Assembly: GCA_963810095.1 (NCBI GenBank)
Contig: CAWEMM010000002.1
Location: 192,001-256,000 of the forward strand
Length of the DNA: 64,000 bases
From: an uncultured Chloroflexia bacterium
GTDB lineage: Bacteria; Chloroflexota; Anaerolineae; CG2-30-64-16
Direction of reading: 5' to 3'
A model generated the notes under the pieces. That model had not been told where the DNA came from. It was given only the letters and a program-made list of their open reading frames with translations, and ran no database searches. Of the stretch, positions 36,937 through 51,094 are shown piece after piece; within the stretch, counting starts at the first letter, position 1; the number at the start of each line of letters is the position of its first letter. Both the position numbers and the translations under genes were made by a program.

Positions 36937-38010
36937 ATGCAGGACGGACTGAACTTTAATCTGAACATGGGCGGCGCGGCCGGCGAGCGGCAGTTTGAAG
37001 AACTGGCAGCGCCAGAGCTGGATCAGGCGCCCCGGCCCGAGATTGAGAACGTGATCATCGTGGGCAGCGGGCCGGCCGGCTGGTCGGCCGCCATCTACAC
37101 TGCCCGCGCCAACCTGCGACCCCTGCTGATCACGGGGAACGAGTTGGGCGGTCAGATCGCGCTGACAACCGAGGTGGAGAACTTCCCCGGCTTTGAGCAG
37201 ATCCAGGGCCCGGAACTGGTCGAGCGGATGCAGAAGCAGGCCGAGCGTTTCGGCACGGAAGTGCTGATCGACTACGTGACGGAAATCGACGTCGACGGGC
37301 CGCCCTTCACGGTGCGCACGGCGTCCGGCCGCGAGTTCAAGACCAAGGGGATTATCGCTGCGACGGGCGCGGCGCCCCGGCGCATGGGCGTGCCCGGCGA
37401 AGACGAACTCATCGGCCGCGGCGTCAGCTACTGCGCCACCTGCGACGGCTTCTTCTTCCGCAACAAGGACGTGGTCGTCGTCGGCGGCGGCGACAGCGCG
37501 CTGCAGGAAGGGCTGTTCCTGACCAAGTTTGCCTCGCGCGTGCGCATCATCCATCGCCGGGATCAACTGCGGGCCGGCGCGGTGCTGCAGCGCCGGGCAA
37601 AGGAAAACCCGAAGATCGAGTTTGTCTGGAATACCGTCGTCGAGAAGGTCAGTGGCGCGGAGAAGGTGAACGGTCTCGCGCTGCGCAACCTCGTGACCGG
37701 CGAGGTCAGTGAGACCAAGACCGATGGCGTCTTCGTGTATATCGGCCACCTGCCGAACAACTCGCTGTTTGCGGATAAGCTGGCGATGGACGACGAAGGC
37801 TACCTGGTCACCGACAAGCTCATGCGGACGAGCGTACCGGGCATTTTCGCGGCCGGCGAGATCCAGGACCATCGTTTCAAGCAGGCGGCGACCTCCGCCG
37901 GTCAGGGCGTGTCGGCGGCGATGGAGGTCGAAAAGTACCTGGCCGACCTGGAAGACCGCACGTATCCGGGGCGGGAAGAGACCTATAAGGAAGTCGAGCT
38001 CGCAGCGTAG
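36937..38010 (+). CDS. trxB: Thioredoxin reductase
   Basis: GSGPAG, GGQ, VENFPGF, CATCDG, GGGDSA, HRRD; GGAGG RBS. Confidence 0.96.
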
Positions 38011-38018
38011 GGCGAGAT

Positions 38019-38095
38019 CACACCACAAAGACACAAAGACACAAAGACACAAGGCTCGATTGCGCTCCTTCGTGTCTTTGTGTCTTTGTGTTTTA
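38019..38095. repeat. CACAAAGA-type periodic hairpin repeat (best conserved copy)
   Basis: (CACAAAGA)x3-CACAAGG...CCTTCGTGTCTTTGTGTCTTTGTG. Confidence 0.9.
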
Positions 38096-38104
38096 ATACC
38101 CTGC

Positions 38105-38882
38105 ATGAACGAACTCATTCCATTGCTCCAGGCATACCTGCGGAAATCGGCCGGGCACACCCGCACGGTCGTCGCGCATCCGCCCTTCCATCTGTACATC
38201 CATCCAACCGACCGGTTCCGGTTCTTCAACTACGCGATTCCGGATTTGCCGGTCGAGGCGCTGAGCAGGTCCGAGCTCGAAGGCCTGGCCGCGGCGTTCG
38301 CCTCCCACAACCGCTCGCTGCGCTTCGAGTTTCTGCACGAATACGCGCCCCGGCTGGGCGGCCTGCTCGACGCGCTCGGCGTGCCGCAGGAGGGTGAGAA
38401 CCCGCTGCTGGTGGCCACGCCCGAGACCTTCAAGGAGGTGGCTCACCCCGACGGCCTGGTGATACGCCGCCTCACGCCCGGCTCGCCCGATGCAGAACTG
38501 GCCGCGCAAATCGATGTGGCGAGCCGGGGGTTCGGCGACGAAGGACGCGACGCGACGCCCGAGCGCATCGCGGACCTGCGGCGCCGGTTGGGGCTGGGGG
38601 GCGCGTACTTTGGGGCCTGGTTGGGCGCGCAGGCCGGCCGGCGTCGGCGCCTACACCGTGCCGCTGGATGGCTTCACCGAGTTGGTGGGGATTGCCACGC
38701 TGCCGGAATACCGCCGGCGGGGGATTGCGGGCGCCGTGACCGCGGAAATGACGCGGGCCGCGTTTGAGGAAGGCGTGCGGACCGCGTTTCTGACGGCCGA
38801 GGACGACGCTGCTAGCCGGGTGTACCAGCGAGCCGGGTTCTACAGGATCGGGACGGGCCTGGCGTACGGGGTCGAGGAATAG
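38105..38882 (+). CDS. GNAT family acetyltransferase, frameshift near 38632
   Basis: C-terminal IATLPEYRRRGIAG and YQRAGF motifs; N-terminal part in ORF 37709-38767. Confidence 0.8.
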
Positions 38883-38885
38883 AAG

Positions 38886-38962
38886 GCAGATTCGACTGAT
38901 TGAACTGATCTTGGTGATCTTGCGGGAAGACCAGGGTGATCAGTTCAATCAGTTCGATCAGC
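38886..38962. repeat. ACTGAT/ATCAGT periodic hairpin repeat between convergent genes
   Basis: GCAGATTCGACTGATTGAACTGATC...GATCAGTTCAATCAGTTCGATCAGC. Confidence 0.75.
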
Positions 38963-38968
38963 GGGCCG

Positions 38969-40192
38969 TTAGCGCGCCTGTCTGCGCGTCGTCACGTCGA
39001 AGATCACGGCGAGCGCAAGCACGAGGCCGCGCACGATGTACTGCCACGAGATGTCGACGCCCATCAGGTTCATGCCGCTGGTCAGTGACATGTAAACCAG
39101 CGCGCCGATGAGCGAACCGATAATCGTCCCGATGCCGCCGGCCGGCGAAGCGCCGCCGATAAACGCGGCCGCGATGGCGTCAAGCTCGAACAGGTTGCCT
39201 GCTTGCGGTGTCGCCGAGCGCAGCCGGGACGCGAAGAGCATGCCGGCCAGCGCCGTCAGGAAGCCCATCGACATGAAGACGAAGAAGGTAATGCGCTTAA
39301 CGTTGACGCCGCTAAGCGCCGCGGCCTCGGGGTTGCCGCCCAAGGCGTAGATGTGCCGGCCGAGGACCGTCTTCGTGGTCATGAAATGGTACACGCCGAC
39401 CACGATCAGCATGATCACGACGGTCCATGAGAGGCCGTTATACCCCGCCAGGATCCAGGTAATCACGCCAAACAACAGCGACAGCAACACCAGCTTCAGA
39501 ATGAACAGGTTGGTCGACAGCACCTCGAAGCCATACGAGATCTTCGTCCGGCGGCTGCTAATCTGGCTGAAGATGAATAACACGATCGCGAGGAGCCCCA
39601 GCAACAGTGTCAAGATGTGCATGCTGGGCAGGAACGCTCTATCCTTGCCCAGAATATCCGGAATGTAGCTATTGCCCAGATCGTTGAAGAACTTGTTGTT
39701 GATGATCACCGTGCCGGTGCCCGCCAGGACGAGCAGGAGCACGCCGCGGTAGGCGAGCCAGCCGGCCAGGGTCGCGACGAAGGCAGGGATGCCGACCTTC
39801 GCCACCAGGAAGCCGGTGAGTGAGCCTGCGGCAATACCCACAAGGAACGTGATCGGCAGGACCACCCACGGCGACAGGCCATACGTGGTGAGGCCAATGG
39901 CGGCAATCGCGCCGCACAGGCCGGCCAGGAAGCCAACGGACAGGTCGATGTGCCGGATGATGATGACGAGCGTCATGCCGCAGGCCAGAACGGCGATGTA
40001 GCCGGTCTGATTCAGCAGGTTGCTGATATTGCGCGGGGTCAGGAAGAGGCCCTTCGTCGTGATCTGGAAGACGATCATGATGACGGCCAGGGCGATATAC
40101 ATGCCGTAGTCGCGGGCATTCTGTCGCATCATCTTGCCGAACGTCGTGGTCGAGGCTGGCGCTGCACCAGCCGGAGTAGAGGTAGCAGACAC
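38969..40192 (-). CDS. Monosaccharide ABC transporter permease (GguB/MmsB-like)
   Basis: HIDLSVG, GIPAFVATLAG, GRHIYALGGNPEAAALSG, ELDAIAAAFIGG. Confidence 0.93.
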   Translation of the reverse strand: MSATSTPAGAAPASTTTFGKMMRQNARDYGMYIALAVIMIVFQITTKGLFLTPRNISNLLNQTGYIAVLACGMTLVIIIRHIDLSVGFLAGLCGAIAAIGLTTYGLSPWVVLPITFLVGIAAGSLTGFLVAKVGIPAFVATLAGWLAYRGVLLLVLAGTGTVIINNKFFNDLGNSYIPDILGKDRAFLPSMHILTLLLGLLAIVLFIFSQISSRRTKISYGFEVLSTNLFILKLVLLSLLFGVITWILAGYNGLSWTVVIMLIVVGVYHFMTTKTVLGRHIYALGGNPEAAALSGVNVKRITFFVFMSMGFLTALAGMLFASRLRSATPQAGNLFELDAIAAAFIGGASPAGGIGTIIGSLIGALVYMSLTSGMNLMGVDISWQYIVRGLVLALAVIFDVTTRRQAR

Positions 40193-40203
40193 TGTGGGCC
40201 TCC

Positions 40204-41745
40204 TTAGTAGGTCGTTGCCAGAGCCATGATGTTTTCCTGCGTTGCCTGCTCGATGGGCAGTTCCCCTGCAATACGCCCCGCGGAGACAACGTAGACGCGA
40301 TCGCTCATGCCCAGCACCTCGGGCAACTCGGACGAGATCATGATGATGCTCATGCCCTGTTGAACCAGCCCGGCCATGATGGTGTAGATTTCGAACTTAG
40401 CGCCGACGTCGATGCCGCGGGTGGGTTCGTCAAGGATCAGCACGTCGGGGCCCACGAACAACCACTTCGCCACCGAGACCTTCTGCTGGTTGCCGCCGCT
40501 GAGGTTCACCACTTTTTGCTCGATACTCGGCGTCTTGATGTTGAGCGATTTCCGGTACTCCTCGGCGATCTTGATTTCTGCGTTGTTGTTCACGACCGCA
40601 TTGCTCGCGATCTTGCGCAGGTTTGCTAACGTGATGTTCTGCTTGACGTCCTGGATGAGGATTAGCCCGGCCGCTTTCCGGTCTTCGGTCGCATAAGCGA
40701 TGCCGGAACGAATGGCCGACTCGGGCAGGTTGAACTGCACCTTCTTCCCCTTGACGTACACGTCGCCGTGGATTTTGTACCCCTTCGAGTTGCCGAACAG
40801 GCTCAGCGCCAGCTCGGTGCGCCCCGACCCCATCAGCCCGGCAAAGCCGACAATCTCCCCCTTCTTGACGTTAAAGTTGACGTCTTGCAGGATCGTGCGG
40901 CCCAGTGCCGGATCGTAGGCGCCCCAGTTCTTCACCTCCAAGACCACTTCGTCGGTCACGACACGCTCGCGCGGCGGGTAGATGTTGGTGATCTCGCGCC
41001 CCACCATGTTTTTGATTAAGGCTGTCTCGGTGACCTGGCCCTTGGTTGCGTCAAGGGTGACGATGGTCTGTCCATCGCGCAATACGGTCACCTTGTCCGC
41101 GATGGCGATGACTTCGCGCAGCTTGTGGGAGATCAGGACGGAGGTTACCCCGTGTTCTTTGAGCTCGCGGATGAGCTGGAGCAGGTTCTCGCTGTCGTCT
41201 TCGTTCAGGGCCGCGGTCGGCTCGTCCAGGATCAGCAGCTTAACATCCTTGCTCAGCGCCTTGGCGATTTCCACGAGCTGCTGTTTGCCAACGCCCAGGT
41301 TCTTGACCTGCGTCGCGGGGTTGACGTTCAGCTTCACTTTGTGCAGGGCATCTACGGACCGCTTGATCGTCTCGTTCCAGTCGATCGTGATGCCCTTCTT
41401 GATCTCGTTGCCGAGGAAGATGTTCTCGTAGACGGTCAGCTCGGGAACCAGGGCCAACTCCTGGTAGATGATGGCGATGCCGGCCCGCTCGCTATCGCGA
41501 ATGCTCGCGAATTTTTGCTCCTGGCCGCTAAAAATGATTTCGCCGGAGTAGGAACCGTGTGGATAAACGCCGCTCAGCACCTTCATGAGCGTCGACTTGC
41601 CCGCGCCGTTCTCGCCGACCAGGCAATGGATCTCCCCCTGTTCCACCTGGAAGCTCACGTTGCTCAGAGCTTTCACGCCGGGGAAGGTCTTGGTGATGTT
41701 TTTCATCTCTAGGATGGGAGCCATCTTGAGGATGGGTTCGCTCAT
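40204..41745 (-). CDS. Monosaccharide ABC transporter ATP-binding protein (GguA/MmsA-like)
   Basis: Two-domain CUT2 ATPase: [27 protein letters not shown]. Confidence 0.95.
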
Positions 41746-41783
41746 AGCCCTCTGCCTCCACTCAACGAACGGAGCGCCCTAGT

Positions 41784-41886
41784 GCAGACCCCGCGAAGCA
41801 CCGAGAGATGGTGCTTCGCGTGGGCCTGCCGTTGCAAGGGCTGCAGGAGTAGCTTGTTCTCGCAGGGCGGTTGGGCTACTCCTGCA
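41784..41886 (-). other. Two strong intercistronic hairpins after the binding-protein gene
   Basis: Stems CGCGAAGCACC/GGTGCTTCGCG and TGCAGGAGTAGC/GCTACTCCTGCA; likely mRNA-stabilising or partial terminators. Confidence 0.55.
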
Positions 41887-41902
41887 TGTCAGCTATACGC
41901 TC

Positions 41903-44158
41903 TTACTGCAGCCCGGTGAAGTCGCTGGCGGGCCAGTAGCCGGAGTCGATGACGGCTTCCTTGACGTTGTCCTTGGTAACGGTGACGATGGCGGACGGCT
42001 TGGCCGGCACGTCGATCTTGCCGTTGTTGTAGGTCGTGGTCTTCTCAGGCGTCTTGCCGGTCAGGAAGGCGACGGCGGCCGCGATGGCGTCGTCGGCCAG
42101 CGTGCGGGTGTCCTTGAGGACGGTCATCGACTGCTTGCCGTCGATGATGTACTGGATGGAGGCCTTTTCGGCGTCCTGGCCGGTGATCCAATACTTGGAG
42201 ACGTCCTTATCGGCGGCGAAGGCATCGGCGATCGAGCGGGCGGTGCCGTCGTTGGGGGCCAGGATGAAGACCTCGCCCTTGTCGGCCGCGGTGGTGGCGG
42301 TGAGGTTCGACTCGGCCAGGTTCTTGGCGACGTCGAACTTCCAGTCGGTGGTGGTCTGGCCGATGATCTTGGCCATCTCGTCGCGGGTCAGCTTGGCCTT
42401 GTCCTTGAGGGCGATGGCTTCCTGCGAGTTCTTGACGACGAAGGTGCCATCGGCGATCTTGGGCTGCAGCTTGTTCCAGGCGCCCTCGAAGAAGAGGAAG
42501 GCGTTGTTGTCAGACGCGGCGCCGGTGTAGAGGTACAGCGGGAGGCCGGTGCGGCCGGCGGCCTGCTTGATCAGGAAATCGCCCCAGGCTTCGCCGACGG
42601 CGACCGAGTCGAAGGTGACGTAGTAATCGACGGCGTCGGTCTCGCGGATCAGGCGGTCATAGGAGATGACCTTGATACCCGCATCGCGGGCTTCCTGAGC
42701 CGCCGCGGCAGCGGCCGTGGCATCCTGCGGGGTGATGACGATGACCTTGACGCCCTGGCTAATCAGCGCCTCGACGTTGGCCTTTTCCTTGGCCGAGTCG
42801 CCCTGGCTAAACAGGATCTGCGCATTGTAGCCGGCCTTCTTGAAGGCATCCTCAAAGCGGGCCTGGTCCTGCAACCAGCGGGGTTCGTCCTTGGTCGGCA
42901 GGATGATGCCAACCGAGCCACCGGCTGCAGCGGCCGGGGCGGTCGTCGCCGCAGGCGCCGTGCCGAGCGTATCGAGCCCGGTGAAGTCGCTGGCGGGCCA
43001 GTAGCCGGAGTCGATGACGGCTTCCTTGACGTTGTCCTTGGTGACGGTGACGATGGCGGACGGCTTGGCCGGCACGTCGATCTTGCCGTTGTTGTAGGTC
43101 GTGGTCTTCTCAGGCGTCTTGCCGGTCAGGTAAGCGACGGCAGCCGCGATGGCGTCGTCGGCCAGCGTGCGGGTGTCCTTGAGGACGGTCATCGACTGCT
43201 TGCCGTCGATGATGTACTGGATGGAGGCCTTTTCGGCGTCCTGGCCGGTGATCCAATACTTGGAGACGTCCTTATCGGCGGCGAAGGCATCGGCGATCGA
43301 GCGGGCGGTGCCGTCGTTGGGGGCCAGGATGAAGACCTCGCCCTTGTCAGCCGCGGTGGTGGCGGTGAGGTTCGACTCGGCCAGGTTCTTGGCGACGTCG
43401 AACTTCCAGTCGGTGGTGGTCTGGCCGATGATCTTGGCCATCTCGTCGCGGGTCAGCTTGGCCTTGTCCTTGAGGGCGATGGCTTCCTGCGAGTTCTTGA
43501 CGACGAAGGTGCCATCGGCGATCTTGGGCTGCAGCTTGTTCCAGGCGCCCTCGAAGAAGAGGAAGGCGTTGTTGTCAGACGCTGCGCCGGTGTAGAGGTA
43601 CAGCGGGAGGCCGGTGCGGCCGGCGGCCTGCTTGATCAGGAAGTCGCCCCAGGCTTCGCCGACGGCGACCGAGTCGAAGGTGACGTAGTAATCGACGGCG
43701 TCAGTCTCGCGGATCAGGCGGTCATAGGAGATGACCTTGATACCCGCATCGCGGGCTTCCTGAGCCGCCGCGGCAGCGGCCGTGGCATCCTGCGGGGTGA
43801 TGACGATGACCTTGACGCCCTGGCTAATCAGCGCCTCGACGTTGGCCTTTTCCTTGGCCGAGTCGCCCTGGCTGAACAGGATCTGCGCATTGTAGCCGGC
43901 CTTCTTGAAGGCATCCTCGAAGCGGGCCTGGTCCTGCAACCAGCGGGGTTCGTCCTTGGTCGGCAGGATGATGCCAACCGAGCCGGCAGCCGCGGCTACC
44001 GGGGCGGTCGTCGCCGCGGGCGCCGTCGTGGCTTGGGCTACCGGGGCGGTCGTCGCCGCGGGCGCGGCCGTGGGCTGGGCTGCCGGGGCGCCGCAGCCGA
44101 AGAGTACGCTGGCAACGGTTACCAGCAGCAGGGCGGTGAAGATCCAACGCTTGTTCAT
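41903..44158 (-). CDS. Sugar-binding lipoprotein (ChvE/XylF-like) with two near-identical tandem domains
   Basis: Lipobox LFGC; PTKDEPRW, ISYDRLI, APNDGTA, ITGQDAE each occur twice. Confidence 0.93.
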   Translation of the reverse strand: MNKRWIFTALLLVTVASVLFGCGAPAAQPTAAPAATTAPVAQATTAPAATTAPVAAAAGSVGIILPTKDEPRWLQDQARFEDAFKKAGYNAQILFSQGDSAKEKANVEALISQGVKVIVITPQDATAAAAAAQEARDAGIKVISYDRLIRETDAVDYYVTFDSVAVGEAWGDFLIKQAAGRTGLPLYLYTGAASDNNAFLFFEGAWNKLQPKIADGTFVVKNSQEAIALKDKAKLTRDEMAKIIGQTTTDWKFDVAKNLAESNLTATTAADKGEVFILAPNDGTARSIADAFAADKDVSKYWITGQDAEKASIQYIIDGKQSMTVLKDTRTLADDAIAAAVAYLTGKTPEKTTTYNNGKIDVPAKPSAIVTVTKDNVKEAVIDSGYWPASDFTGLDTLGTAPAATTAPAAAAGGSVGIILPTKDEPRWLQDQARFEDAFKKAGYNAQILFSQGDSAKEKANVEALISQGVKVIVITPQDATAAAAAAQEARDAGIKVISYDRLIRETDAVDYYVTFDSVAVGEAWGDFLIKQAAGRTGLPLYLYTGAASDNNAFLFFEGAWNKLQPKIADGTFVVKNSQEAIALKDKAKLTRDEMAKIIGQTTTDWKFDVAKNLAESNLTATTAADKGEVFILAPNDGTARSIADAFAADKDVSKYWITGQDAEKASIQYIIDGKQSMTVLKDTRTLADDAIAAAVAFLTGKTPEKTTTYNNGKIDVPAKPSAIVTVTKDNVKEAVIDSGYWPASDFTGLQ
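41910..43984. repeat. Intragenic direct repeat of about 1010 bp, period 1065 bp
   Basis: 41910-42919 vs 42975-43984 are nearly identical, with scattered synonymous differences and one F/Y change. Confidence 0.95.
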
Positions 44159-44296
44159 GCTTACTTCTCCTCTTGATTATGGAAATCGGCTTCGATCGTT
44201 TTGTCAGATCTGCGGTATGTTAGCGCCTGCTGGACCTCCTACTCTGACCGGCGAGAACGCAAGCGCGGTCGGCAGCGATTCCCGGGATCAAAGATG

Positions 44297-44384
44297 AATA
44301 TAGCACAGATGTCGAGCCACTGGTACGACCAACCGCAGCCCCCGCTATCGGATTCCCCATACTGGCGTTAGGGGGAAACCCTTA
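44297..44384 (-). promoter_or_regulatory. Promoter of the sugar importer with paired 16-bp palindromes
   Basis: TGcTATATT extended -10 (44297-44305); TATCGGATTCCCCATA (44346-44361) and TAGGGGGAAACCCTTA (44369-44384). Confidence 0.55.
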
Positions 44385-44391
44385 AGGCTAT

Positions 44392-45993
44392 CTAGAGTTC
44401 TTCTTTGGGTTCGCTGCGGCGATAGGGCACGTCGACCTGAATGAGGGCTCCGCCTTCCGGTCGATTCTGCAACCTCCATTGTCCGCCCAACAGGGCCACG
44501 CGCTCTGTAATTCCCAACACACCGTAGTGCCCCTGCTCTGATAGCTGCGCAAGGTCGAAGTCCTTGGGCAGGCCGCGACCATCGTCGGCGATGGACAGCA
44601 TGATCCGCCTTGGCGACCGGGACTCCAAGCGGACCTCGACCGACTTGGCGCCCGAGTGTTTCCGCACGTTGTTCAGCCCTTCCTGGACGATTCTGAAGAT
44701 GGAGAGCTCCGTCGACTCCGCCAACCTCCCCAGCGCCGGATCGAGGGTGAGCGTGACGCGTACGCCCGTGCGCTTGCTCCACTCGTATGTGTAGGACTGG
44801 AGCGCCGAACCGAGACCCAGGCTGTCGATGGTCGGCGGGCGGAGCGTGCCGCAGATCTGCCGCAAGTCGGTGATGGCGCCGTGCACGCTGCTGCGGATGG
44901 TCTGCAGCTCCGCTGCCACCGGCGACCCGGCGTCCGTGTCGGCCTGGAGCTCCTCCAACTGGTAACCCACCCCCAGCAGGTCCTGAATGACCTGGTCGTG
45001 GATCTCGCGCGCCAGCCGCTTGCGCTCTTGCTCCAGTTCGGTGAGGAGGCGCCGCTGCGCATCCTGGAGTGCCAGGTTGGCCCGATCGAGCGCATTGATC
45101 TGGTCCGCCAGCTGGTCGAAGAGCTGCTGTTCGATCCCGTTGCGCGACTGCAGCTCGCGCTCGAGCAGCGATTGGCGCTGGTAGAGCTTCTCGGCTCGCT
45201 CTCGGGCCCGGTAGTAGCTGTCGAGCGCCCAGATGATCGGGGTGAGCTGCTGTTGGTTCGTCGCGCCGACCATCGCCCCCAGGATCTCCTCGCGCGTGAC
45301 GGCGTCCGTCTGGTATTCGGCGGTGCAATTGCCGTGTCGCAGGACGAGGATGCGGTCCGTGACGCCCATGAGGTGGTCGACGTTGTCGCTGGCGAAGAGG
45401 ACGGCCGCGCCTTGCCGCTGCCACTCCTGCACCAGCGCAAGCAGTCGCTGCTGGTACGGGTAGCTGAGGACAACACCGGGATCGTCGATGACGATCAACC
45501 GGCGAGGATGGGTCATCGCCCGGGCGATCGCAATCAGTTGACGCTGTTCGATCGAGAGGTCGGACACGCCGGAGCGCAGCGAGGGATAGCGCATGCCTAG
45601 CTCTGCCAGGATCCGAGCGGCCTCGCGGTCCATCTCGTGCAGGTTGGGCACCCGCAGCCACCGACCCGCCACACTCCAGCCGAGCTCGCCCCCCAGGAAG
45701 ACGTTGTGCGTGATATCGAGGTTCTCGGCCATCTCCGGCTGCTGGCCCACGACTTCGATGCCCAGCCGTCGGGCCTGGAAGGGCCAGCGGACCTTGCGGC
45801 CCTCGAAGTACAGTTCCCCCGCGTCGGGTGCGTGGCTGCCCGCCAGCAGCGTGGCGACCGTGGTCTTGCCCGCGCCACTCTGCCCGGCCAGGCCGACGAC
45901 CTCGCCGGGGAGGATATCGAAGCTGAGATTCTGGATTCGCGAGAGCCGGCCCACATATTGGGACAGCTTAATCGCCCGCAGCAGTGGCTCCAC
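44392..45993 (-). CDS. Fusion of sugar-ABC ATP-binding domain, HisKA_3 and HATPase (histidine kinase)
   Basis: N-terminal Walker A GQSGAGKT; C-terminal ERKRLAREIHD H-box, IVQEGLNNVRKHS N-box, DDGRG, HYGVLGITER; one continuous ORF with no TM. Confidence 0.9.
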   Translation of the reverse strand: MEPLLRAIKLSQYVGRLSRIQNLSFDILPGEVVGLAGQSGAGKTTVATLLAGSHAPDAGELYFEGRKVRWPFQARRLGIEVVGQQPEMAENLDITHNVFLGGELGWSVAGRWLRVPNLHEMDREAARILAELGMRYPSLRSGVSDLSIEQRQLIAIARAMTHPRRLIVIDDPGVVLSYPYQQRLLALVQEWQRQGAAVLFASDNVDHLMGVTDRILVLRHGNCTAEYQTDAVTREEILGAMVGATNQQQLTPIIWALDSYYRARERAEKLYQRQSLLERELQSRNGIEQQLFDQLADQINALDRANLALQDAQRRLLTELEQERKRLAREIHDQVIQDLLGVGYQLEELQADTDAGSPVAAELQTIRSSVHGAITDLRQICGTLRPPTIDSLGLGSALQSYTYEWSKRTGVRVTLTLDPALGRLAESTELSIFRIVQEGLNNVRKHSGAKSVEVRLESRSPRRIMLSIADDGRGLPKDFDLAQLSEQGHYGVLGITERVALLGGQWRLQNRPEGGALIQVDVPYRRSEPKEEL

Positions 45994-47068
45994 GGTGAGC
46001 TCCTCGCCGTTTCCGCCGCCAATAGTCCAGCAGGACGGCTACCAGGATTGCCGCGCCAATAATCGTGATCTGCCAATCCGAAGGGCCGCCGAGCAGCACC
46101 AGCCCGTTGTAGAGCATCTGGGTGATGCCCGCGCCGAGCAAGACGCCCAGGGCCGCGCCCACCCCGCCGAACAAGCTTGCGCCGCCAATCACCGAAGCGG
46201 CCACGACGTCGATCTCGTAGCCGATCGCAGCAGTTGGCTGCGCGACGCCCAGCCTGGCAGCGAAGACCAACCCGCCGAGCGCGGCCAGCAGCCCACACAA
46301 CGTGTACACCAGCACCTTCAGCCGCTTGACGTTGACGCCCGTAACCGTCAGCGCACGTTCGCCGCTGCTTACTGCGTAGATGTCGCCGCCCAGAACCGTG
46401 CGTGTGAGCAAGAGCTTGACCAGCAGGGCCACGAGCAGCGCGAGCACGAACGGCGCCGGCAGGATCCACGGGCCGAGCGCGAGGTCGGTCTGGCCGAGCC
46501 GGACAAACTGGGGGGGCAGGTTCGTCACCGGCCAGCCGCGGGTGAGGTTGTACGCAAAGCCCCGGGCGATGCTCATGGTCGCCAGCGTGACGACGAAGGC
46601 CGGCAGCCGGATGTGCGCGGTCAGCATCCCGTTCACCCAGCCAATGACCAGTCCGACGCTCAGGCCGATCGCAACGGCGAGCGGCACGGCTGCGCCCAAC
46701 TGCATCGAGCGCGATGCCATGAGTCCCGCCAAGGCCATGGTTGCACCGACCGACAGGTCGATGCCGCCGATGATGATGACCAGGCTTTCGCCCAACGCGA
46801 CGATGGCCAGCCAGGAGATATTGCGCAGCAGGCCGGCGATGTTCTGAGGCGTGAGAAACGTCTCGCTTTTGAGGCTCAGGAAGGTGAAGACCACGAAAAA
46901 GACAAGGCCGATCAGAAAGACCTCGCGGGCGAACACCAGCCGCCAGGCGCGGCGAAGCAACTCCCCCAGGCGGGCAGTCTCCAGGGTCCTCCGTTCGGCC
47001 GATGTCTTCGGAGCGATCGCCAATGACTCTCCCTGAAAGATTTCGGGTGGTGCTGCCGGTTCGGCCAC
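45968..47068 (-). CDS. RbsC-like sugar ABC permease
   Basis: GGIDLSVG, LPAFVVTLA, YEIDVVAASVIGGASLFGG; overlaps the kinase start. Confidence 0.9.
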   Translation of the reverse strand: MAEPAAPPEIFQGESLAIAPKTSAERRTLETARLGELLRRAWRLVFAREVFLIGLVFFVVFTFLSLKSETFLTPQNIAGLLRNISWLAIVALGESLVIIIGGIDLSVGATMALAGLMASRSMQLGAAVPLAVAIGLSVGLVIGWVNGMLTAHIRLPAFVVTLATMSIARGFAYNLTRGWPVTNLPPQFVRLGQTDLALGPWILPAPFVLALLVALLVKLLLTRTVLGGDIYAVSSGERALTVTGVNVKRLKVLVYTLCGLLAALGGLVFAARLGVAQPTAAIGYEIDVVAASVIGGASLFGGVGAALGVLLGAGITQMLYNGLVLLGGPSDWQITIIGAAILVAVLLDYWRRKRRGAHRGATAAGD

Positions 47069-47089
47069 TGCGCCGGGCGTGGCCGGGCC

Positions 47090-48130
47090 TTACGCGAGCA
47101 CGTCGTCGATCATCAAGCGCAGGCTCGCAGCGTCCAGGTCTTTCTTGTCGAGCAGGGCAGATGCGCCCGCCGCGATGCCGAGGCGGCGAAACTCGCGGTC
47201 GGGGTAGGCCGTGATCAGGACGATGCGCGAGTGGGGCCACGAGGCCTTGATGCGCCGGGCGCATTGGATCCCGTCTTCTTCGCCCAAAATCACGTCGACC
47301 AGCACAAGCTTGGGCATGACCTCCTCGGTCAGGCGAATGGCTTCGCTCGTGTTGCCCGCTTCGTAGATGACCGCCTGCGGGTATGCCCGGCCCAACATGC
47401 GCCGCAGCTGGTTCCGATAACGCGGGTTATCGTCTACGAGCAGCGTCGCCAAGCCGCTGCGCGGGAGCAAATCCGCGACACTTAACCCCGCGGAAGGTTG
47501 GTTGAGCACCTCGGGGTGTTCCGTCACGTAACGCACGGCTTCGAGGCGGCTCTGCACATTCAGGTGCCGGTAGATGCGCGTGAGATGGTTCTCGATGGTC
47601 TTGACGCTCAGGCCCGTCTCGCGGGCGAGGCTCTGGTTATCATGACCCTGGCTCAGCAGGGCCAGGATTTCCCGCTGGCGTTCGGTGAGGGTCGACGAAG
47701 ACGAGGTGAACTCGGCATAGCTGAGCAGTTTGCCGATGAGATGGCTGCTGATCCAGCGCTCGCCGTCGAGCACCCGCTGCACCGCGAGGCGCAGGTCGCT
47801 CAGCGGCTGGTCCTTAAGGTGGTACCCGTCGACTCCCACGCCGAGCAGGCCCTGCACGTACGCGTCGTCGTCATATGCGCTGACGACGAGGATCTTGAGG
47901 GCCGGGTAGCGCCGGCGTATCTCGCGCATGGCCCCGATTGGTTCAAAGTGGGGCATGGTCACGTCGATGACCAGCAGGTCAGGTTGCAGGCGTTCGAGCG
48001 CCGGGGTCAGGGTTGGGCCGTCGCCCACTTCACCCACGACCTCCAGGTTGTCCAGTCCCTCCAGCGCATTCCGGATGCCCGACCGGACGACTGCGTGGTC
48101 ATCTGCTAACAGTACCCGCACGTTTTCCAT
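47090..48130 (-). CDS. Response regulator REC-LuxR HTH-REC
   Basis: N-terminal REC (ADDH, IDVTMP, K), LTERQREIL..SVKTIENHLTRIY HTH, second REC (VDDN, VDVIL, K). Confidence 0.9.
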   Translation of the reverse strand: MENVRVLLADDHAVVRSGIRNALEGLDNLEVVGEVGDGPTLTPALERLQPDLLVIDVTMPHFEPIGAMREIRRRYPALKILVVSAYDDDAYVQGLLGVGVDGYHLKDQPLSDLRLAVQRVLDGERWISSHLIGKLLSYAEFTSSSSTLTERQREILALLSQGHDNQSLARETGLSVKTIENHLTRIYRHLNVQSRLEAVRYVTEHPEVLNQPSAGLSVADLLPRSGLATLLVDDNPRYRNQLRRMLGRAYPQAVIYEAGNTSEAIRLTEEVMPKLVLVDVILGEEDGIQCARRIKASWPHSRIVLITAYPDREFRRLGIAAGASALLDKKDLDAASLRLMIDDVLA

Positions 48131-48136
48131 AATGAT

Positions 48137-48224
48137 ATTCTAGCATCGGCATCGCCGTCTGCCAATGGGGCTTCGCTCTTCGCAGTGCGGCATTACCCAC
48201 GTGACCTTTGAGGGATTTCCCCCA
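48137..48224 (-). promoter_or_regulatory. Leaderless promoter of the regulator with paired 16-bp palindromes
   Basis: TGcTAGAAT 6 nt before ATG; GTGCGGCATTACCCAC (48185-48200) and TGAGGGATTTCCCCCA (48209-48224). Confidence 0.5.
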
Positions 48225-48238
48225 TGCTAGTGCCCGCC

Positions 48239-49252
48239 TCAGGGCGTCCAGCCGCTCGTAGTCCACTCGTGCGGAATGCGCCGGTTGTCCAGTTGGGCTT
48301 CATACTCGCGCAGGTTCTGGGCCGTCACCACATCCACCCCCGTGCTGATCACGCCATCCACGGCGCCCAATTCGTTCAGCGCCGCGTCCTTGCCCTTTCG
48401 GCGGATCAAGTCGATGATTTGCACGGATTGGTAGCCCATGTCGTACTCGCGCTGCGCGACGACCGCGTCGATGCTGCCTGTCTTGATGCCGCTAATGCTG
48501 TCGGACGTGGCGTCGAAGCACACCACTTTGATCTCGCCCGCCGCGTTCGCCTCGCCGATCGCTGTCGCCCATGCCGGCCCGTTATAGGCGTAGACGCCGA
48601 AAGCGCCGGCCAGGTCGGGGTGCGTCAGCAAGATTGAATTGGAGAGCTGCAGCGCCACCGCGGCGTCCTCGCGATCGTTGAGCGGGGGCAGCGCCTCGAT
48701 CCCACTGCCCGCCACCGCGGCCTTGAACCCATCCGTTCGCTGCAGCGCGTTGAGCGCCGTGTCTGAGCCGCGCACGATGCCGACCTTCCCGCCCTTCGGG
48801 AGCAGGCGCGCCATGGTCTCGCCTGCAATGCGGCCCGCTGCGAGGTTGTCCGTCCCGATGTAGGCGTTCGACACGCTTCCGTCGACGGGCGGGGTGTCCA
48901 GGGTAGTGACGATAATCCCGGCGCCGGTCGCCTTCCGCATCACCTGCTCCAGCGCTTCGGGGTTCGAGGGCGCGATGGCAATGCCCGTCACCCGCTGCGC
49001 GATGTACGTCTCCATTAGTTGGATCTGCGCGGCCACGTTTTCTTGCGGGGGCACGACAAGGGTCGCGTCGACGCCCAGGTCCCTGCCGGCTACCAGCACG
49101 CCCTTTTCGACGTTGGTCCAATAAGGGTTCATCGACTTGCCGATGACCACGATCTTGGGGCGCGGGGCCGCACTGGCCGGCGCGGGACCACTGCACGCCG
49201 CGGCCGCCGAGACGACCGTGAGGGTGAGAACCAGGATGAGGGCGTGCCGCAT
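48239..49252 (-). CDS. Sugar-binding lipoprotein (RbsB-like)
   Basis: Lipobox AAAC; NPYW, IAIAP, YIGTDN, RTDGF, VCFD, VAQ. Confidence 0.9.
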
Positions 49253-49263
49253 TCCCCGGCGCC

Positions 49264-50121
49264 TTACGCGAACAGCGGGGTCATCTGCCGGCCAGCCGCC
49301 ATTCTCTGCATTTCTTCTTCGCTCGGCGCAGCTTGGAACCGGCTTGCGGCGTCCAGCACCTTCGGCAGCAAGTTCACGTCGCCTGCCGTGTTCAGAAACA
49401 CGCCGGGCTGCCCCAGCACGAACCACACGGCGCGGTCCAGGTCGGCCTGGTCCTCGAGCGTCTCGTACCAGGTCGTGCGCGTGTGGGGCTTCTCGCCCCA
49501 CGGTCCAACCGCCACCGATTTGATGATCTGCACGGCAACGTTCCGGGTCCGACAGGTGTCGAGCAGCGTCTCGAATTCCTGTTGATAGGCCGGGTTTTGG
49601 CTCAACGGGTAGTTGTAGGGCAGGAGCACGGCGTCGAAGTCGTGCCGCGCCAGGCTGCGCAGGTGCATGCGTGGGACAGCAAGCTCATGCCCCGTCACGC
49701 CAACGAAGCGCGTCAGCCCTTGCGCCTGCGCTTCCAGCACCGCCTCCAGTGCACCGTCGGCGCCCATCGCCGTTTGCCATTCACCCTCATCCACCAGGAA
49801 GTGCAGCTGCAGGAGGTCGACGTGGTCGGTCTGCAGCCGGTCGAGGGAGCGCCGGAACTCGTCCCAGGCCTTCGTCTTTGTCCGTTCGCCGGTCTTGGTC
49901 GCGAGGAAGAACTGGTCCCGGTGCCGCTTCATCCACGGGCCAATCCGGTCCTCCGCAGCGCCGTAAGAAGCCGCGGTGTCGATGTGGTTAACCCCGTACT
50001 CCAACAGCACGTCGAGCGTGCGGTCGGCCGTCTCCTGCGAGACGTCCCAAAACGCCGCCGCGCCGAACACGGCCCGCGTGCTTTCATGTCCCGTCCGACC
50101 AAACATCGCCTTCTCGATCAT
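49264..50121 (-). CDS. Aldo/keto reductase
   Basis: [39 protein letters not shown]. Confidence 0.92.
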
Positions 50122-50154
50122 CTGCCATCCTCTCTCCAAACGCAGTCTCTACGA

Positions 50155-50227
50155 CCGCCGAGAAACCAGGTCACAAAGTTCCAGAAAGCTGTGCTGCAGT
50201 GTCTGGTCCTTCGTGGCTCACTCTGTG
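50155..50227. repeat. Degenerate periodic hairpin repeat
   Basis: CACAAAG...CCTTCGTGG...CTCTGTGG units. Confidence 0.4.
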
Positions 50228-50235
50228 GAAGGCCC

Positions 50236-51094
50236 CTATTTCTTGCTGTAATCGTAGAAGCCCGCGGCCGCTCTTGCGGCCCAGCCAGCCCGCGCTCACC
50301 ATGCGGCGGAGCAGCGGCGGCGCGGCGAAGCGCGGATCCTTGGTCTCATCAAACACGGCGTCTGCCACAAACAACGTCGTGTCGAGCCCGACGAAGTCGA
50401 GCAGGGTGAAGGGGCCCATGGGGTGGTTCAATCCGAGCCGGATCGCCGTGTCAAAGTCTTCCTTGGTTGCAACGCCCTTTTCGAGCTCGGCGATGGCCTG
50501 CAGGAGATAGGGGATCAGCAGCAAGTTGACGATAAAGCCGGGCGTATCCTTGCTGACCACGATGGTCTTGCCCAGATTCTCGCCGAAAGCCTTGGCCGTC
50601 TGGAACGTCTCTTCGCTGGTGAGAAACGTGCGCACCATCTCCAGCAGGGGCATGACGGGCACGGGCTGCATGAAGTGCAGGCCCAGCACCTTGTCGGGGC
50701 GCTTGGTTGCTGCGGCCATGTCGGTGATGGCGAGCGAAGAGGTATTGGACGCGAGGATAGCATGGGGCGGCGTCACCGCATCCAGCTCGGCGAAGATCTT
50801 GCGTTTGAGGTCCAGGTTTTCGACGGCGGCCTCGATCACGAGGTCGCAGTCAGCGAAGGCATTGATGTCCGTCGTCCCGATGATGCGGAGCTGCGCCGCG
50901 TCCCGGTCTTCGGCGGCCAGCTTGCCCTTGGCAACCGCGCGGTCGAGAGAGTCTGTCAGGCGCTTCATCCCCGCGTTCAGCAGGTCGGGGGTTTGCTCAC
51001 GCACGATGACGGTGTAGCCGCCCTTGGCGACGACCTCCGCGATACCCGAACCCATCAGGCCGCAGCCCACCACGCCCACTCGTTCGATAGCCAT
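50236..51094 (-). CDS. hbd: 3-hydroxybutyryl-CoA dehydrogenase, extra base near 50262 at the 3' end
   Basis: GCGLMGSG, IEAAVEN, ASNTSS, GLHF, PMGP; the conserved GRKSGRGFYDY* is restored by removing one G. Confidence 0.92.

Follow-up and report, generated by a model that had tools for sequence, protein, structure and literature searches.

What does the ATPase domain of a sugar transporter do at the head of a histidine kinase? The question is raised by a 64,000-nucleotide stretch of DNA from an uncultured Chloroflexia bacterium (GenBank assembly GCA_963810095.1, contig CAWEMM010000002.1, positions 192,001 to 256,000; hereafter the window, with positions counted from its first letter), in which one gene at 44392-45993 of the minus strand encodes a protein of 533 amino acids (aa) that joins a nucleotide-binding domain (NBD) of the ATP-binding cassette (ABC) type to a HisKA_3 histidine kinase. 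Genes for a substrate-binding protein (SBP), a response regulator, a permease and a ChvE/GguAB-type sugar importer adjoin it. From the features described below, this system would be a sugar sensor kinase that docks on a transporter-like permease and induces the neighbouring importer, a reading to which we assign a probability of about 0.55.

Architecture of the fusion protein

The open reading frame (ORF) of the fusion was translated without an internal stop. It lies on the minus strand, as do all genes of this region, and comprises the following parts:

45259-45993, minus strand: NBD (aa 1-245), with K43 in Walker A, Q84 in the Q-loop, LSIEQ, D170 in Walker B, D171 in place of the catalytic Glu and D203 in place of the switch His
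45028-45258, minus strand: linker and long helix (aa 246-322) leading from the NBD to the kinase, including LTPIIWALDSYYRAREQAEKL (aa 250-270)
44419-45027, minus strand: HisKA_3 dimerisation and phospho-acceptor domain (aa 323-387, H332) and HATPase_c catalytic domain (aa 394-525; N442, D470, G472, G474), located by Pfam and alignment

Three Pfam domains were detected, all above their curated cut-offs: ABC_tran (PF00005; aa 21-172, E 1.9e-23, 84 bits against a cut-off of 25), HisKA_3 (PF07730; aa 323-387, E 1.1e-14, 55.2 bits against 24) and HATPase_c (PF02518; aa 429-525, E 3.1e-9, 37.7 bits against 26.4). The first score identifies the N-terminal part as an ABC NBD, and the H-box His together with the N, G1 and G2 boxes of HATPase_c identifies the C-terminal part as a kinase of the HisKA_3 (NarX/UhpB/DesK) type. 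Among the NCBIfam models, aa 2-252 resembled the N-terminal halves of the CUT2 ATPases RbsA, YtfR, AraG, XylG, AlsA and GguA, and aa 270-525 resembled the HisKA_3 kinases MctS, UhpB, NarX and LiaS, in both cases far below the equivalog cut-offs. The protein is not itself a CUT2 sugar ATPase, as its NBD is single rather than tandem and the RbsA model was matched over its N-terminal half only, with 118.7 bits against a cut-off of 745. No transmembrane, HAMP, PAS, GAF or Cache input was found by Pfam (E up to 0.01) or by hydropathy analysis. The highest Kyte-Doolittle mean over 19 residues was 0.92 and no such stretch exceeded 1.6, versus 81 stretches in the upstream permease; the fusion is a soluble protein. 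The first-pass annotation had described the ORF as a CUT2-type NBD joined to a complete HisKA_3/HATPase kinase lacking transmembrane and sensor domains, and had quoted the motifs GQSGAGKT, LSIEQ, LIVIDDP and FASDN; the composition was borne out, and all four motifs are present in the NBD.

An AlphaFold2 model calculated with an 18-row alignment gave a mean predicted local distance difference test score (pLDDT) of 73.4, with values of about 80-93 over most of the NBD (aa 1-245). It places helices at 247-283, 289-352 and 358-384, followed by an alpha/beta catalytic domain at 394-525. When this model was compared with the PDB by Foldseek, the top matches were ABC NBDs only, and no PDB chain spanning both the NBD and the kinase halves was retrieved by sequence or by fold. 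The only input domain recognised in the kinase is hence a single CUT2-type NBD that lacks the switch His and, in the clade of the window, the catalytic Glu as well.

Distribution of the fusion in Chloroflexota

The same architecture was found widely within one phylum. In a collection of 5.8 billion proteins, 118 of the 120 best matches carried all three Pfam domains, with 60-100% identity and a length of ~530 aa; the other two were shorter and lacked HATPase_c. Few of the relatives are named at all, and those that are bear the database names "ATP-binding cassette domain-containing protein" (Anaerolineae or Chloroflexi) or "signal transduction histidine kinase". A relative is encoded in 139 GTDB species genomes, and 80 loci were kept out of the 139 stretches (one genome per GTDB species). 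All 80 belong to Chloroflexota, namely to Anaerolineae, Caldilineae, Chloroflexia including Roseiflexaceae, Thermoflexia, Ardenticatenaceae, Promineifilaceae and others, so that the fusion defines a family found, among the records searched here, only in this phylum. A full-length match (E up to 1e-80) was detected in 22 of 300 other genomes of the phylum that had been sampled evenly, and its occurrence was patchy by family (12 of 18 genomes in one of them). In the genome of the window (6.1 Mb, 16 contigs, 88.5% complete) the fusion is single-copy, the 84 other matches covering either the NBD part or the kinase part. An exhaustive HMMER search further yielded the distant full-length members P0132, P0134, P0135 and P0136 (40-48% identity) and P0178 (32%).

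A frameshift, a lost stop or a chimeric assembly that joined an ATPase gene to a kinase gene can be regarded as refuted for practical purposes. Such an artefact would have found room in the draft state of the genome and in the fact that no single read-derived contig spans the gene. However, the same open fusion of ~530 aa recurs in 80 loci from different assemblies, several of them on contigs longer than 1 Mb, and it occurs in genomes of the phylum that consist of one contig; moreover, no part of the protein is better conserved than the junction helix. Contigs of two sequencing runs, X1 and X3, covered 45038-45328 and 45049-45258, respectively, without a difference or an indel. Both runs come from one study, which may be that of the source sample; their contigs are short and leave 44791-44961 uncovered. 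No RNA run was among those listed for the sequence. It had been suggested at the outset that reads across 45100-45300 might betray a stop or a frameshift, and these contigs show none.

The kinase module is 55% identical to that of P0145, a conventional dCache-HAMP-HisKA_3 kinase, which suggests that the family arose when a periplasmic sensor was exchanged for an NBD.

Two observations outside the family are recorded separately. The ESM Atlas holds two Bacillota clusters (~613-616 aa; 120 and 58 members) with HisKA_2 and HATPase_c, in which ABC_tran occurs in 83% and 45%, respectively. They may represent an independent NBD-kinase fusion with a different DHp family; with a score of 0.86, which is below 0.9, they are a lead only. 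The use of the NBD as a portable input to other outputs was also considered, for which P0161 (ABC_tran, MalT-type TPR and LuxR helix-turn-helix (HTH)) and P0157 (ABC_tran, GAF, HisKA and HATPase_c) were the candidates; both are single sequences on contigs of ~2 kb. A search with P0161 uncovered a further large set of NBD-HisKA_3 proteins. Since its 119 other best matches were all of this type and aligned to its first 55-66% only, P0161 was regarded as a probable chimera, and both proteins were set aside.

Conservation and catalytic state of the NBD

The fusion of the window was aligned with the 80 locus-encoded proteins (n = 81). The kinase residues H332, N442, D470, G472, G474 and G491 were each found in 81/81, and in the NBD the Walker A Lys (K43) was kept in 79/81, the Q-loop Gln (Q84) in 78/81, and P86 and the Walker B Asp (D170) in 81/81. 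The window thus possesses the Walker A, Q-loop and Walker B residues of a competent ATPase, and it departs from one at the catalytic Glu (D171) and the H-loop His (D203). A passage of PMC7544095 describes loss of the catalytic Glu as the hallmark of a degenerate site that is unable to sustain transport. The two columns behave differently across the family. Column 171 holds D in 39 sequences, E in 39 and N in 3, whereas column 203 holds N in 40, D in 13, T in 8, Q in 6, G in 5, P in 4, K in 2, S in 2 and H in 1, so that the switch His survives in a single member (L039) and is absent from 80/81. The alignment therefore locates the lesion common to the family in the loss of the switch His, the change from Glu to Asp being confined to the clade of the window and one other clade. 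Both exchanges had been pointed out in the first-pass annotation as H-to-D and E-to-D. The former stands as a loss of His, with Asn rather than Asp as the commonest replacement, and the latter stands for the window and is divided in the family.

The columns were fixed with the aid of the distant fusion P0178, which carries MDEPT and VSHRL, that is, a canonical Glu and His, at the positions of D171 and D203. P0178 is a singleton on a 1,976-nt contig and was used solely for this purpose and as a caution. In a quick maximum-likelihood tree of 86 sequences, the distribution of Glu and non-Glu at position 171 required at least four changes, and, with P0178 as the root, Glu occurred in the earliest-branching clades, which belong to Chloroflexia. 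Accordingly, Glu at 171 may be ancestral and may have been lost more than once, a suggestion that is tentative because the tree was a quick one and its root is a single branch of great length.

Conservation in the fusion is highest not in either catalytic domain but in the helix leaving the NBD, LTPIIWALDSYYRAREQAEKL, in which W255 is found in 81/81 and P252 and R264 in 80/81 each. A further variant was seen in P0134, a full-length metagenome protein of 536 aa, in which Walker A is destroyed and a His occupies the catalytic Glu position, with the H-box of the kinase intact; its NBD probably no longer binds ATP.

Gene context in the window and across the family

The neighbours of the fusion in the window are as follows:

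48239-49252, minus strand: RbsB-like substrate-binding lipoprotein, candidate sensor SBP (ATG at 49252, signal peptide and lipobox, Peripla_BP_4 E 1.2e-53)
48137-48165, minus strand: promoter-like site (TTGGCA-17-TAGAAT, with TG; 10/12 consensus matches) within the 108 nt preceding the regulator gene
47090-48130, minus strand: response regulator of 346 aa with the layout REC, GerE/LuxR HTH, REC (two stretches of Response_reg, GerE at 147-201; best NCBIfam match of MctR/NarL type, below cut-off)
45968-47068, minus strand: RbsC/AraH-like permease (BPD_transp_2, E 1.8e-38; best NCBIfam matches AraH/GguB/RbsC, below cut-offs)
41903-44158, minus strand: ChvE-like SBP with two SBP units in tandem (751 aa), assigned to the presumed target importer (ChvE 501.7 bits, cut-off 460, two stretches)
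40204-41745, minus strand: GguA-like ATPase with two NBDs in tandem and canonical motifs (774.7 bits for GguA, cut-off of 810 not reached)
38969-40192, minus strand: GguB-like permease, likewise assigned to this importer (420.2 bits for GguB, cut-off of 450 not reached)

The SBP, regulator, permease and kinase genes form a four-gene cluster that contains no further ATPase gene. The SBP gene starts 11 nt past the stop of an upstream aldo/keto-reductase-like gene, and the 3' end of the permease gene overlaps the start of the kinase gene by 26 nt. The nearest solved relatives of the lipoprotein are 2h3h, 2qvc and 3c6q (E 5e-77; database label "sugar ABC transporter, periplasmic sugar-binding protein"), which we take to be the glucose/xylose-binding protein of Thermotoga maritima. 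In 12 loci, the regulator gene has an orthologue of the lipoprotein gene next to it (61-74% identity). The permease has 21 orthologues with a mean column identity of 67%, and it is only ~40% identical to GguB, over the C-terminal part. Of the importer proteins, ChvE scored above its equivalog cut-off, whereas GguA and GguB were the best matches yet remained below theirs. The neighbourhood had been read in this way from the start, with an RbsB-like lipoprotein, a regulator, an RbsC-like permease and a ChvE/GguAB-type importer, and the cluster does supply the fusion with its own permease and SBP as had been claimed; the regulator proved to be of the REC-GerE-REC form rather than a plain one.

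The regulator accompanies the kinase, with 66 regulator-class ORFs across the 80 loci. In the window and 61 orthologues, Asp11, Ser84 and Lys106 of the first receiver and Asp233, Asp234, Asp279 and Lys329 of the second were invariant (62/62; the column of the first receiver's acceptor, Asp56, was left out), and position 307 of the second receiver was Ser or Thr in 62/62. The second receiver of this unusual REC-LuxR HTH-REC layout hence retains the acidic pocket, the acceptor Asp, the Ser/Thr and the Lys throughout, and it may act as an additional site of phosphorylation, as a sink for phosphate or as the target of another kinase. The promoter-like site before the regulator gene is a consensus match only, as the scan for promoters and terminators performed no better than shuffles (2 sites versus 1.5 expected).

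The 80 loci were classed by tblastn with the seven proteins of the window, a classification that covers these families only among the genes near the loci. Six loci had too little upstream DNA to be classed, and one (L008) was ambiguous. The following classes were obtained:

42 loci: RbsC-like permease as the upstream neighbour of the NBD-kinase, in some loci with a second SBP gene in between; residue 171 D19, E21, N2
16 loci: regulator only upstream, no permease in the operon; residue 171 D15, N1
8 loci: nothing on the same strand within 400 bp upstream (including the ambiguous L008); residue 171 D1, E7
6 loci: SBP, short ATPase, GguB-like permease, then NBD-kinase; residue 171 all E
2 loci (L071, L073): SBP, GguB-like permease, then NBD-kinase, no ATPase; residue 171 both E
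6 loci: not assessable

No statistics were drawn from these classes because they follow clades. In 15 of the 16 regulator-only loci, ChvE-, GguA- or GguB-type genes were located on the opposite strand. Five of the eight loci with nothing upstream (L067, L068, L069, L078 and L079) have a ChvE-type gene downstream, with GguA and GguB next in three, and six of the eight (the same five and L077) have a divergently oriented regulator gene. As far as gene order tells, a private permease and SBP, as in the window, are the commonest arrangement and not the sole one; in some lineages the kinase lies in an operon with a complete, apparently working transporter. The synteny proposed in the first-pass annotation was thus recovered in 42/80 loci and broke down in the 16 without a permease in the operon and the six with a canonical ATPase. 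Its putatively dead NBD within a dedicated receptor fits the pattern of the window's clade but not the family as a whole.

The short ATPases of the six-locus class are 249-279 aa long and consist of a single NBD with canonical motifs, including GDNGAGKS, IMDEPTAAL and SH or TH. With the NBD of the kinase they share 33-36% identity. The loci that bear them suggest that this NBD is a paralogue of a single-NBD motor, and such ATPases may have been its source. Single-NBD canonical CUT2-like ATPases of this size, replacing the tandem ATPase beside GguB-like permeases, were observed in L029, L036, L038, L039, L045, L046, L052, L065, L070, L072, L075 and L080.

A palindrome before regulator and importer genes

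The palindrome TAGGGG-N2-6-CCCCTA was spotted by inspecting the DNA ahead of ChvE-type genes, after which all loci (1.09 Mb) were searched for it. In total, 41 sites were detected in 38/80 loci, versus a mean of 0.55 (maximum 2) in 20 block shuffles. All 41 sites are intergenic; four were flagged inside regulator ORFs because the ORF calls begin at the first possible start codon. The regulator gene is preceded by 25 of these sites, at a distance of 23-220 nt, and a ChvE-type gene by 7; 4 follow directly on the kinase stop, and 5 lie elsewhere. A palindrome of 16-18 nt suits a dimeric LuxR-type HTH, and the positions suggest that it ties the sensor system to the neighbouring importer.

In the window, the half-site matrix derived from the family sites located one copy:

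44369-44384, no strand assigned: degenerate palindrome copy TTAGGGGGAAACCCTTAA, candidate operator for the regulator, at a distance of 8 nt from the preceding kinase stop and ~210 nt from the chvE start that follows

TTAGGGGGAAACCCTTAA is the only inverted-pair match in the 64-kb window and one of 2 matches scoring at least 16.7 in the 6.1-Mb genome, for which shuffled genomes gave 3-6. As ~5 matches are expected per 6.1 Mb of shuffled sequence, the chance of a match in the 233-nt gap between the kinase gene and chvE is roughly 2e-4. The 17-nt consensus of the palindrome gave 0 matches in the window with up to 3 mismatches. A k-mer analysis of the regions upstream of chvE genes showed no enrichment above shuffles (8-mers in at most 12/15 sequences versus a shuffle maximum of 11).

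Predicted docking and proposed mechanism

The Q-loop region faces the permease in ABC importers, and it is conserved in the NBD of the fusion. A complex of the permease (residues 40-366) and the NBD (aa 1-250) was predicted with 21-row alignments for each partner. The interface score ipSAE was 0.44 (0.44, 0.42 and 0.44 in the three runs) versus 0.00 for the best of three controls, which corresponds to a verdict of "weak support". The runs agreed in at least 95% of contacts, and the partner had a pLDDT of at least 77. In the benchmark of this prediction, the mark was reached by 58/80 solved complexes and 2/110 mismatched pairs; at an ipSAE of 0.60 or under, where the present value lies, it was reached by only 7/80 solved complexes and by both mismatches.

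We propose that the system operates as follows. What has been observed is the architecture, its conservation, the motif states, the synteny and the palindrome; docking, the absence of transport, the direction of the switch, the binding of the regulator to the palindrome and the ligand are inferred. The kinase would dimerise via its DHp helices and thereby bring two NBDs together, and these would dock on two copies of the RbsC-like permease, the product of the adjacent upstream gene. The lipoprotein, presumably of the glucose/xylose type judging by its nearest solved relatives, would bind its sugar outside the cell and dock on the permease, and the liganded SBP would favour ATP-dependent closure of the NBDs, as in an ordinary ABC importer. 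With hydrolysis crippled, closure would serve as a conformational signal and not as a power stroke, and slow hydrolysis might act as a reset timer. By way of the invariant helix after the NBD (aa 250-270) and a coiled coil, the signal would reach the DHp bundle and switch the protein between kinase and phosphatase activity. Phosphate would then be transferred to the REC-LuxR-REC regulator, which would bind the TAGGGG-N2-6-CCCCTA sites in front of its own operon and of the genes for the ChvE/GguAB-type monosaccharide importer and activate both. Real uptake would be performed by the latter importer, the sensor assembly itself presumably transporting nothing.

A wider proposal can be put forward only tentatively, and we rate it somewhat short of an even chance. 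According to it, a whole SBP-dependent ABC importer has been turned into a non-transporting receptor, in which the sugar-loaded SBP closes two hydrolysis-impaired NBDs wired by a conserved helix into the fused kinase. The altered catalytic residues and the separate, complete importer alongside are indirect pointers to such a loss of transport. It would be a prokaryotic ABC "transceptor" with a covalent output, and the family would record the stages of its conversion, from a kinase riding on a working transporter, through the acquisition of a private permease and SBP, to the loss of the catalytic Glu.

Objections and alternative explanations

Several observations weigh against a sensor kinase docked on its own permease. 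The catalytic Glu is kept in 39/81 family members and P0178 keeps both Glu and His, so that loss of hydrolysis is not a precondition of the design; in the window itself, Asp171 might permit residual turnover. The 16 loci without a permease in the operon and a further 7 with nothing on the same strand within 400 bp upstream imply that the docking partner is encoded elsewhere or that there is no docking, and the six loci with a fully canonical single-NBD ATPase beside the permease suit a kinase that rides on a working transporter. The predicted permease-NBD complex may reflect likeness more than binding, since NBD-permease pairs resemble solved complexes of a textbook kind. The permease-NBD part of the complex envisaged in the first-pass annotation has yielded a contact that its controls did not give, for a pair in which likeness could produce it. 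Binding of the regulator to the palindrome is deduced from where the sites lie. The strict palindrome is absent from the whole 6.1-Mb genome, and the copy in the window is degenerate; an imperfect palindrome of a G-run and a C-run at 48209-48225, which resembles the family palindrome, precedes the regulator start by ~80 nt and lies immediately before the promoter-like site, failed the half-site threshold. The link to the downstream importer, as first proposed, is supported by the sites found in the family before regulator and ChvE-type genes, with a degenerate copy in the window.

These objections lend themselves to other explanations. The NBD-kinase could be the real, if slow, motor of a working importer with a built-in flux reporter, the kinase reporting transport as BceS does for BceAB. 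This would explain why the four-gene cluster has no other ATPase gene and why Walker A, the Q-loop and the Walker B Asp are kept, and it agrees with the many members that retain the catalytic Glu, with L071 and L073, where an SBP, a GguB-like permease and an NBD-kinase with Glu are present and no other ATPase, and with the canonical Glu and His of the distant P0178. We nevertheless consider it unlikely, as the H-loop His is absent from 80/81, the window also lacks the Glu, a complete importer with canonical motifs adjoins, and in six loci a canonical single-NBD ATPase beside the permease makes a second motor redundant. The NBD might instead plug into the neighbouring real importer, in place of or besides the private permease, by docking on GguB or pairing with the true ATPase domain so as to sense or throttle its cycle. 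The regulator-only loci, 15/16 of which have importer-type genes on the opposite strand, are in line with this possibility, as are the seven loci with nothing upstream, five of them followed by a ChvE-type gene, the six loci with the order SBP, canonical ATPase, permease and NBD-kinase, and the 33-36% identity of the NBD to such ATPases. It is rendered quite doubtful by the separate RbsC-like permease directly upstream in the window and many loci, which differs so much from GguB, overlaps the kinase gene in the window and has well-conserved orthologues.

A free cytoplasmic sensor of nucleotide or energy state, whose NBD binds ATP or ADP and contacts no permease, appears very improbable. The fusion is soluble, some loci have no adjacent permease, and the loss of Walker A in P0134 indicates that the NBD is able to drift from transporter chemistry. 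Yet the link to CUT2 permease and SBP genes is tight and recurrent, with a permease directly upstream in 42 + 6 + 2 of the 80 loci; the Q-loop region is conserved (Q84 and P86); and the palindrome connects the system to the promoters of sugar importers. The sensor kinase docked on its private permease, which induces the ChvE/GguAB-type importer, remains the reading that we prefer for the window.

Comparison with known systems

A close functional parallel is provided by the UhpABC system of Escherichia coli, in which a transporter-like receptor, UhpC, a HisKA_3 kinase, UhpB, and a NarL-type regulator, UhpA, induce the real transporter UhpT. The window shares with it a transporter homologue as the putative receptor, a HisKA_3 kinase (NCBIfam match to UhpB, E 6.5e-29), a LuxR/NarL-type regulator and the supposed induction of a true transporter. 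It differs in that UhpC is an MFS and not an ABC protein, the Uhp proteins are separate, and UhpB is a membrane protein. In ChvE-VirA, LuxP-LuxQ and TorT-TorS, a periplasmic SBP signals to a two-component kinase by touching its periplasmic domain. The SBP in the window is of the same fold class, whereas the kinase has no periplasmic or membrane part.

For BceAB-BceS of Bacillota, a passage of PMC6978683 describes a kinase without its own ligand-binding domain that senses in what state an ABC transporter is and whose output induces a transporter. The kinase of the window likewise lacks a ligand-binding domain and would read a transporter. The Bce components are separate proteins with a membrane-embedded kinase that touches the permease BceB, in an active exporter-type machine without an SBP, whereas the kinase in the window is soluble and covalently bears the NBD, and its partner would be an SBP-dependent CUT2 sugar permease. 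With a BPD_transp_2 permease of the RbsC/AraH type and a soluble, NBD-fused kinase, the cluster is not a Bce-type module. The same source outlines PstSCAB-PhoU-PhoR, where the state of the importer, read at or near the ATPase PstB, sets kinase versus phosphatase activity (PMC6978683). Unlike the window, Pst signals non-covalently via the adaptor PhoU, the importer is a working one, and PhoR is anchored in the membrane.

Transporter modules within kinase polypeptides are also on record. Passages of PMC7096432, PMC5715377 and PMC11109136 present CbrA and CrbS (SLC5-STAC-kinase) as a transporter module and a histidine kinase in one polypeptide; these fuse the membrane domain of a secondary carrier, whereas the window fuses the soluble ATPase domain of a primary ABC transporter and leaves the membrane part to a separate gene. 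S-component-like 5TMR kinases are portrayed in PMC11109136 as "prokaryotic transceptors", in which a part of an ABC transporter was recruited as the input of a histidine kinase. They recruited the membrane S-component fold of ECF transporters, and the kinase of the window recruited the NBD. Transceptors are strictly defined there as membrane folds, and the terms "nucleotide-binding" and "NBD" occur 0 times in that text (PMC11109136). Degenerate sites are known from the ABC exporters TAP1, ABCB11 and others, which according to passages of PMC7544095 and PMC7756269 have lost the catalytic Glu, bind ATP and do not sustain transport. Such a site is paired with one active site in a working heterodimer, whereas the presumed homodimer of the window would have two impaired sites and a signalling output.

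A search of open-licence PMC papers and bioRxiv retrieved no description of an NBD-kinase fusion, and the passages considered in PMC11109136, PMC1183210 and PMC6978683 do not mention one. This agrees with the first-pass annotation, which knew of no characterised covalent fusion of this kind. Transporter-coupled two-component sensing is already known, while a covalent fusion of the ATPase domain that is widespread in one phylum is apparently uncharacterised.

Most of what is known about how information moves from a transporter to a signalling protein concerns non-covalent cases (BceAB-BceS, Pst-PhoU-PhoR and UhpC-UhpB), where contact and motion are hard to pin down. In the fusion, the ATPase domain and the kinase form one chain joined by an invariant helix, so that the signal path is fixed by the sequence and could be tested with one purified protein and one permease. 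If the proposed reading is true, the closure step of an ABC NBD can be reused as a switch without transport, and the fusion offers a natural read-out of a step common to all ABC transporters as well as a new class of input domain for two-component systems. As its members differ in whether they have the catalytic Glu and a private permease, the family would constitute a natural series from transporter to receptor. The system would also provide a compact sugar-sensing module with a candidate operator for engineering, and proteins now given generic ATP-binding-cassette or histidine-kinase names could be better annotated.

Additional features of the loci

No Rfam match was found in 38000-51000 of the window. 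In the close relatives L002 (7360-9921) and L004 (12138-14699), the GguA-like ATPase is one ORF of 853 aa with a ChvE-like domain in frame between the two NBDs. This insert is 58% identical to the ChvE of the window and would be a cytoplasmic sugar-binding domain inside an ABC ATPase. In L013 (6859-8991), L014 (4073-6211) and L019 (2748-4865), the permease upstream of the NBD-kinase is fused to a second RbsB-like domain, giving proteins of 705-712 aa; the domain is ~30% identical to the SBP of the window.

The ChvE-like double SBP of the window consists of halves identical in 347/350 aa, and its DNA repeat has a spacing of 1065 nt and 99-100% identity. Eleven of the 12 other long ChvE-like ORFs in the loci are double too, with halves 90-99% identical, as compared with 25-75% between orthologues of different genomes. 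They were located in L005, L036, L038, L039, L047, L052, L065, L076, L079, L004 (16807-18663) and L032. This pattern suggests repeated duplication or homogenisation between the halves and not an assembly error.

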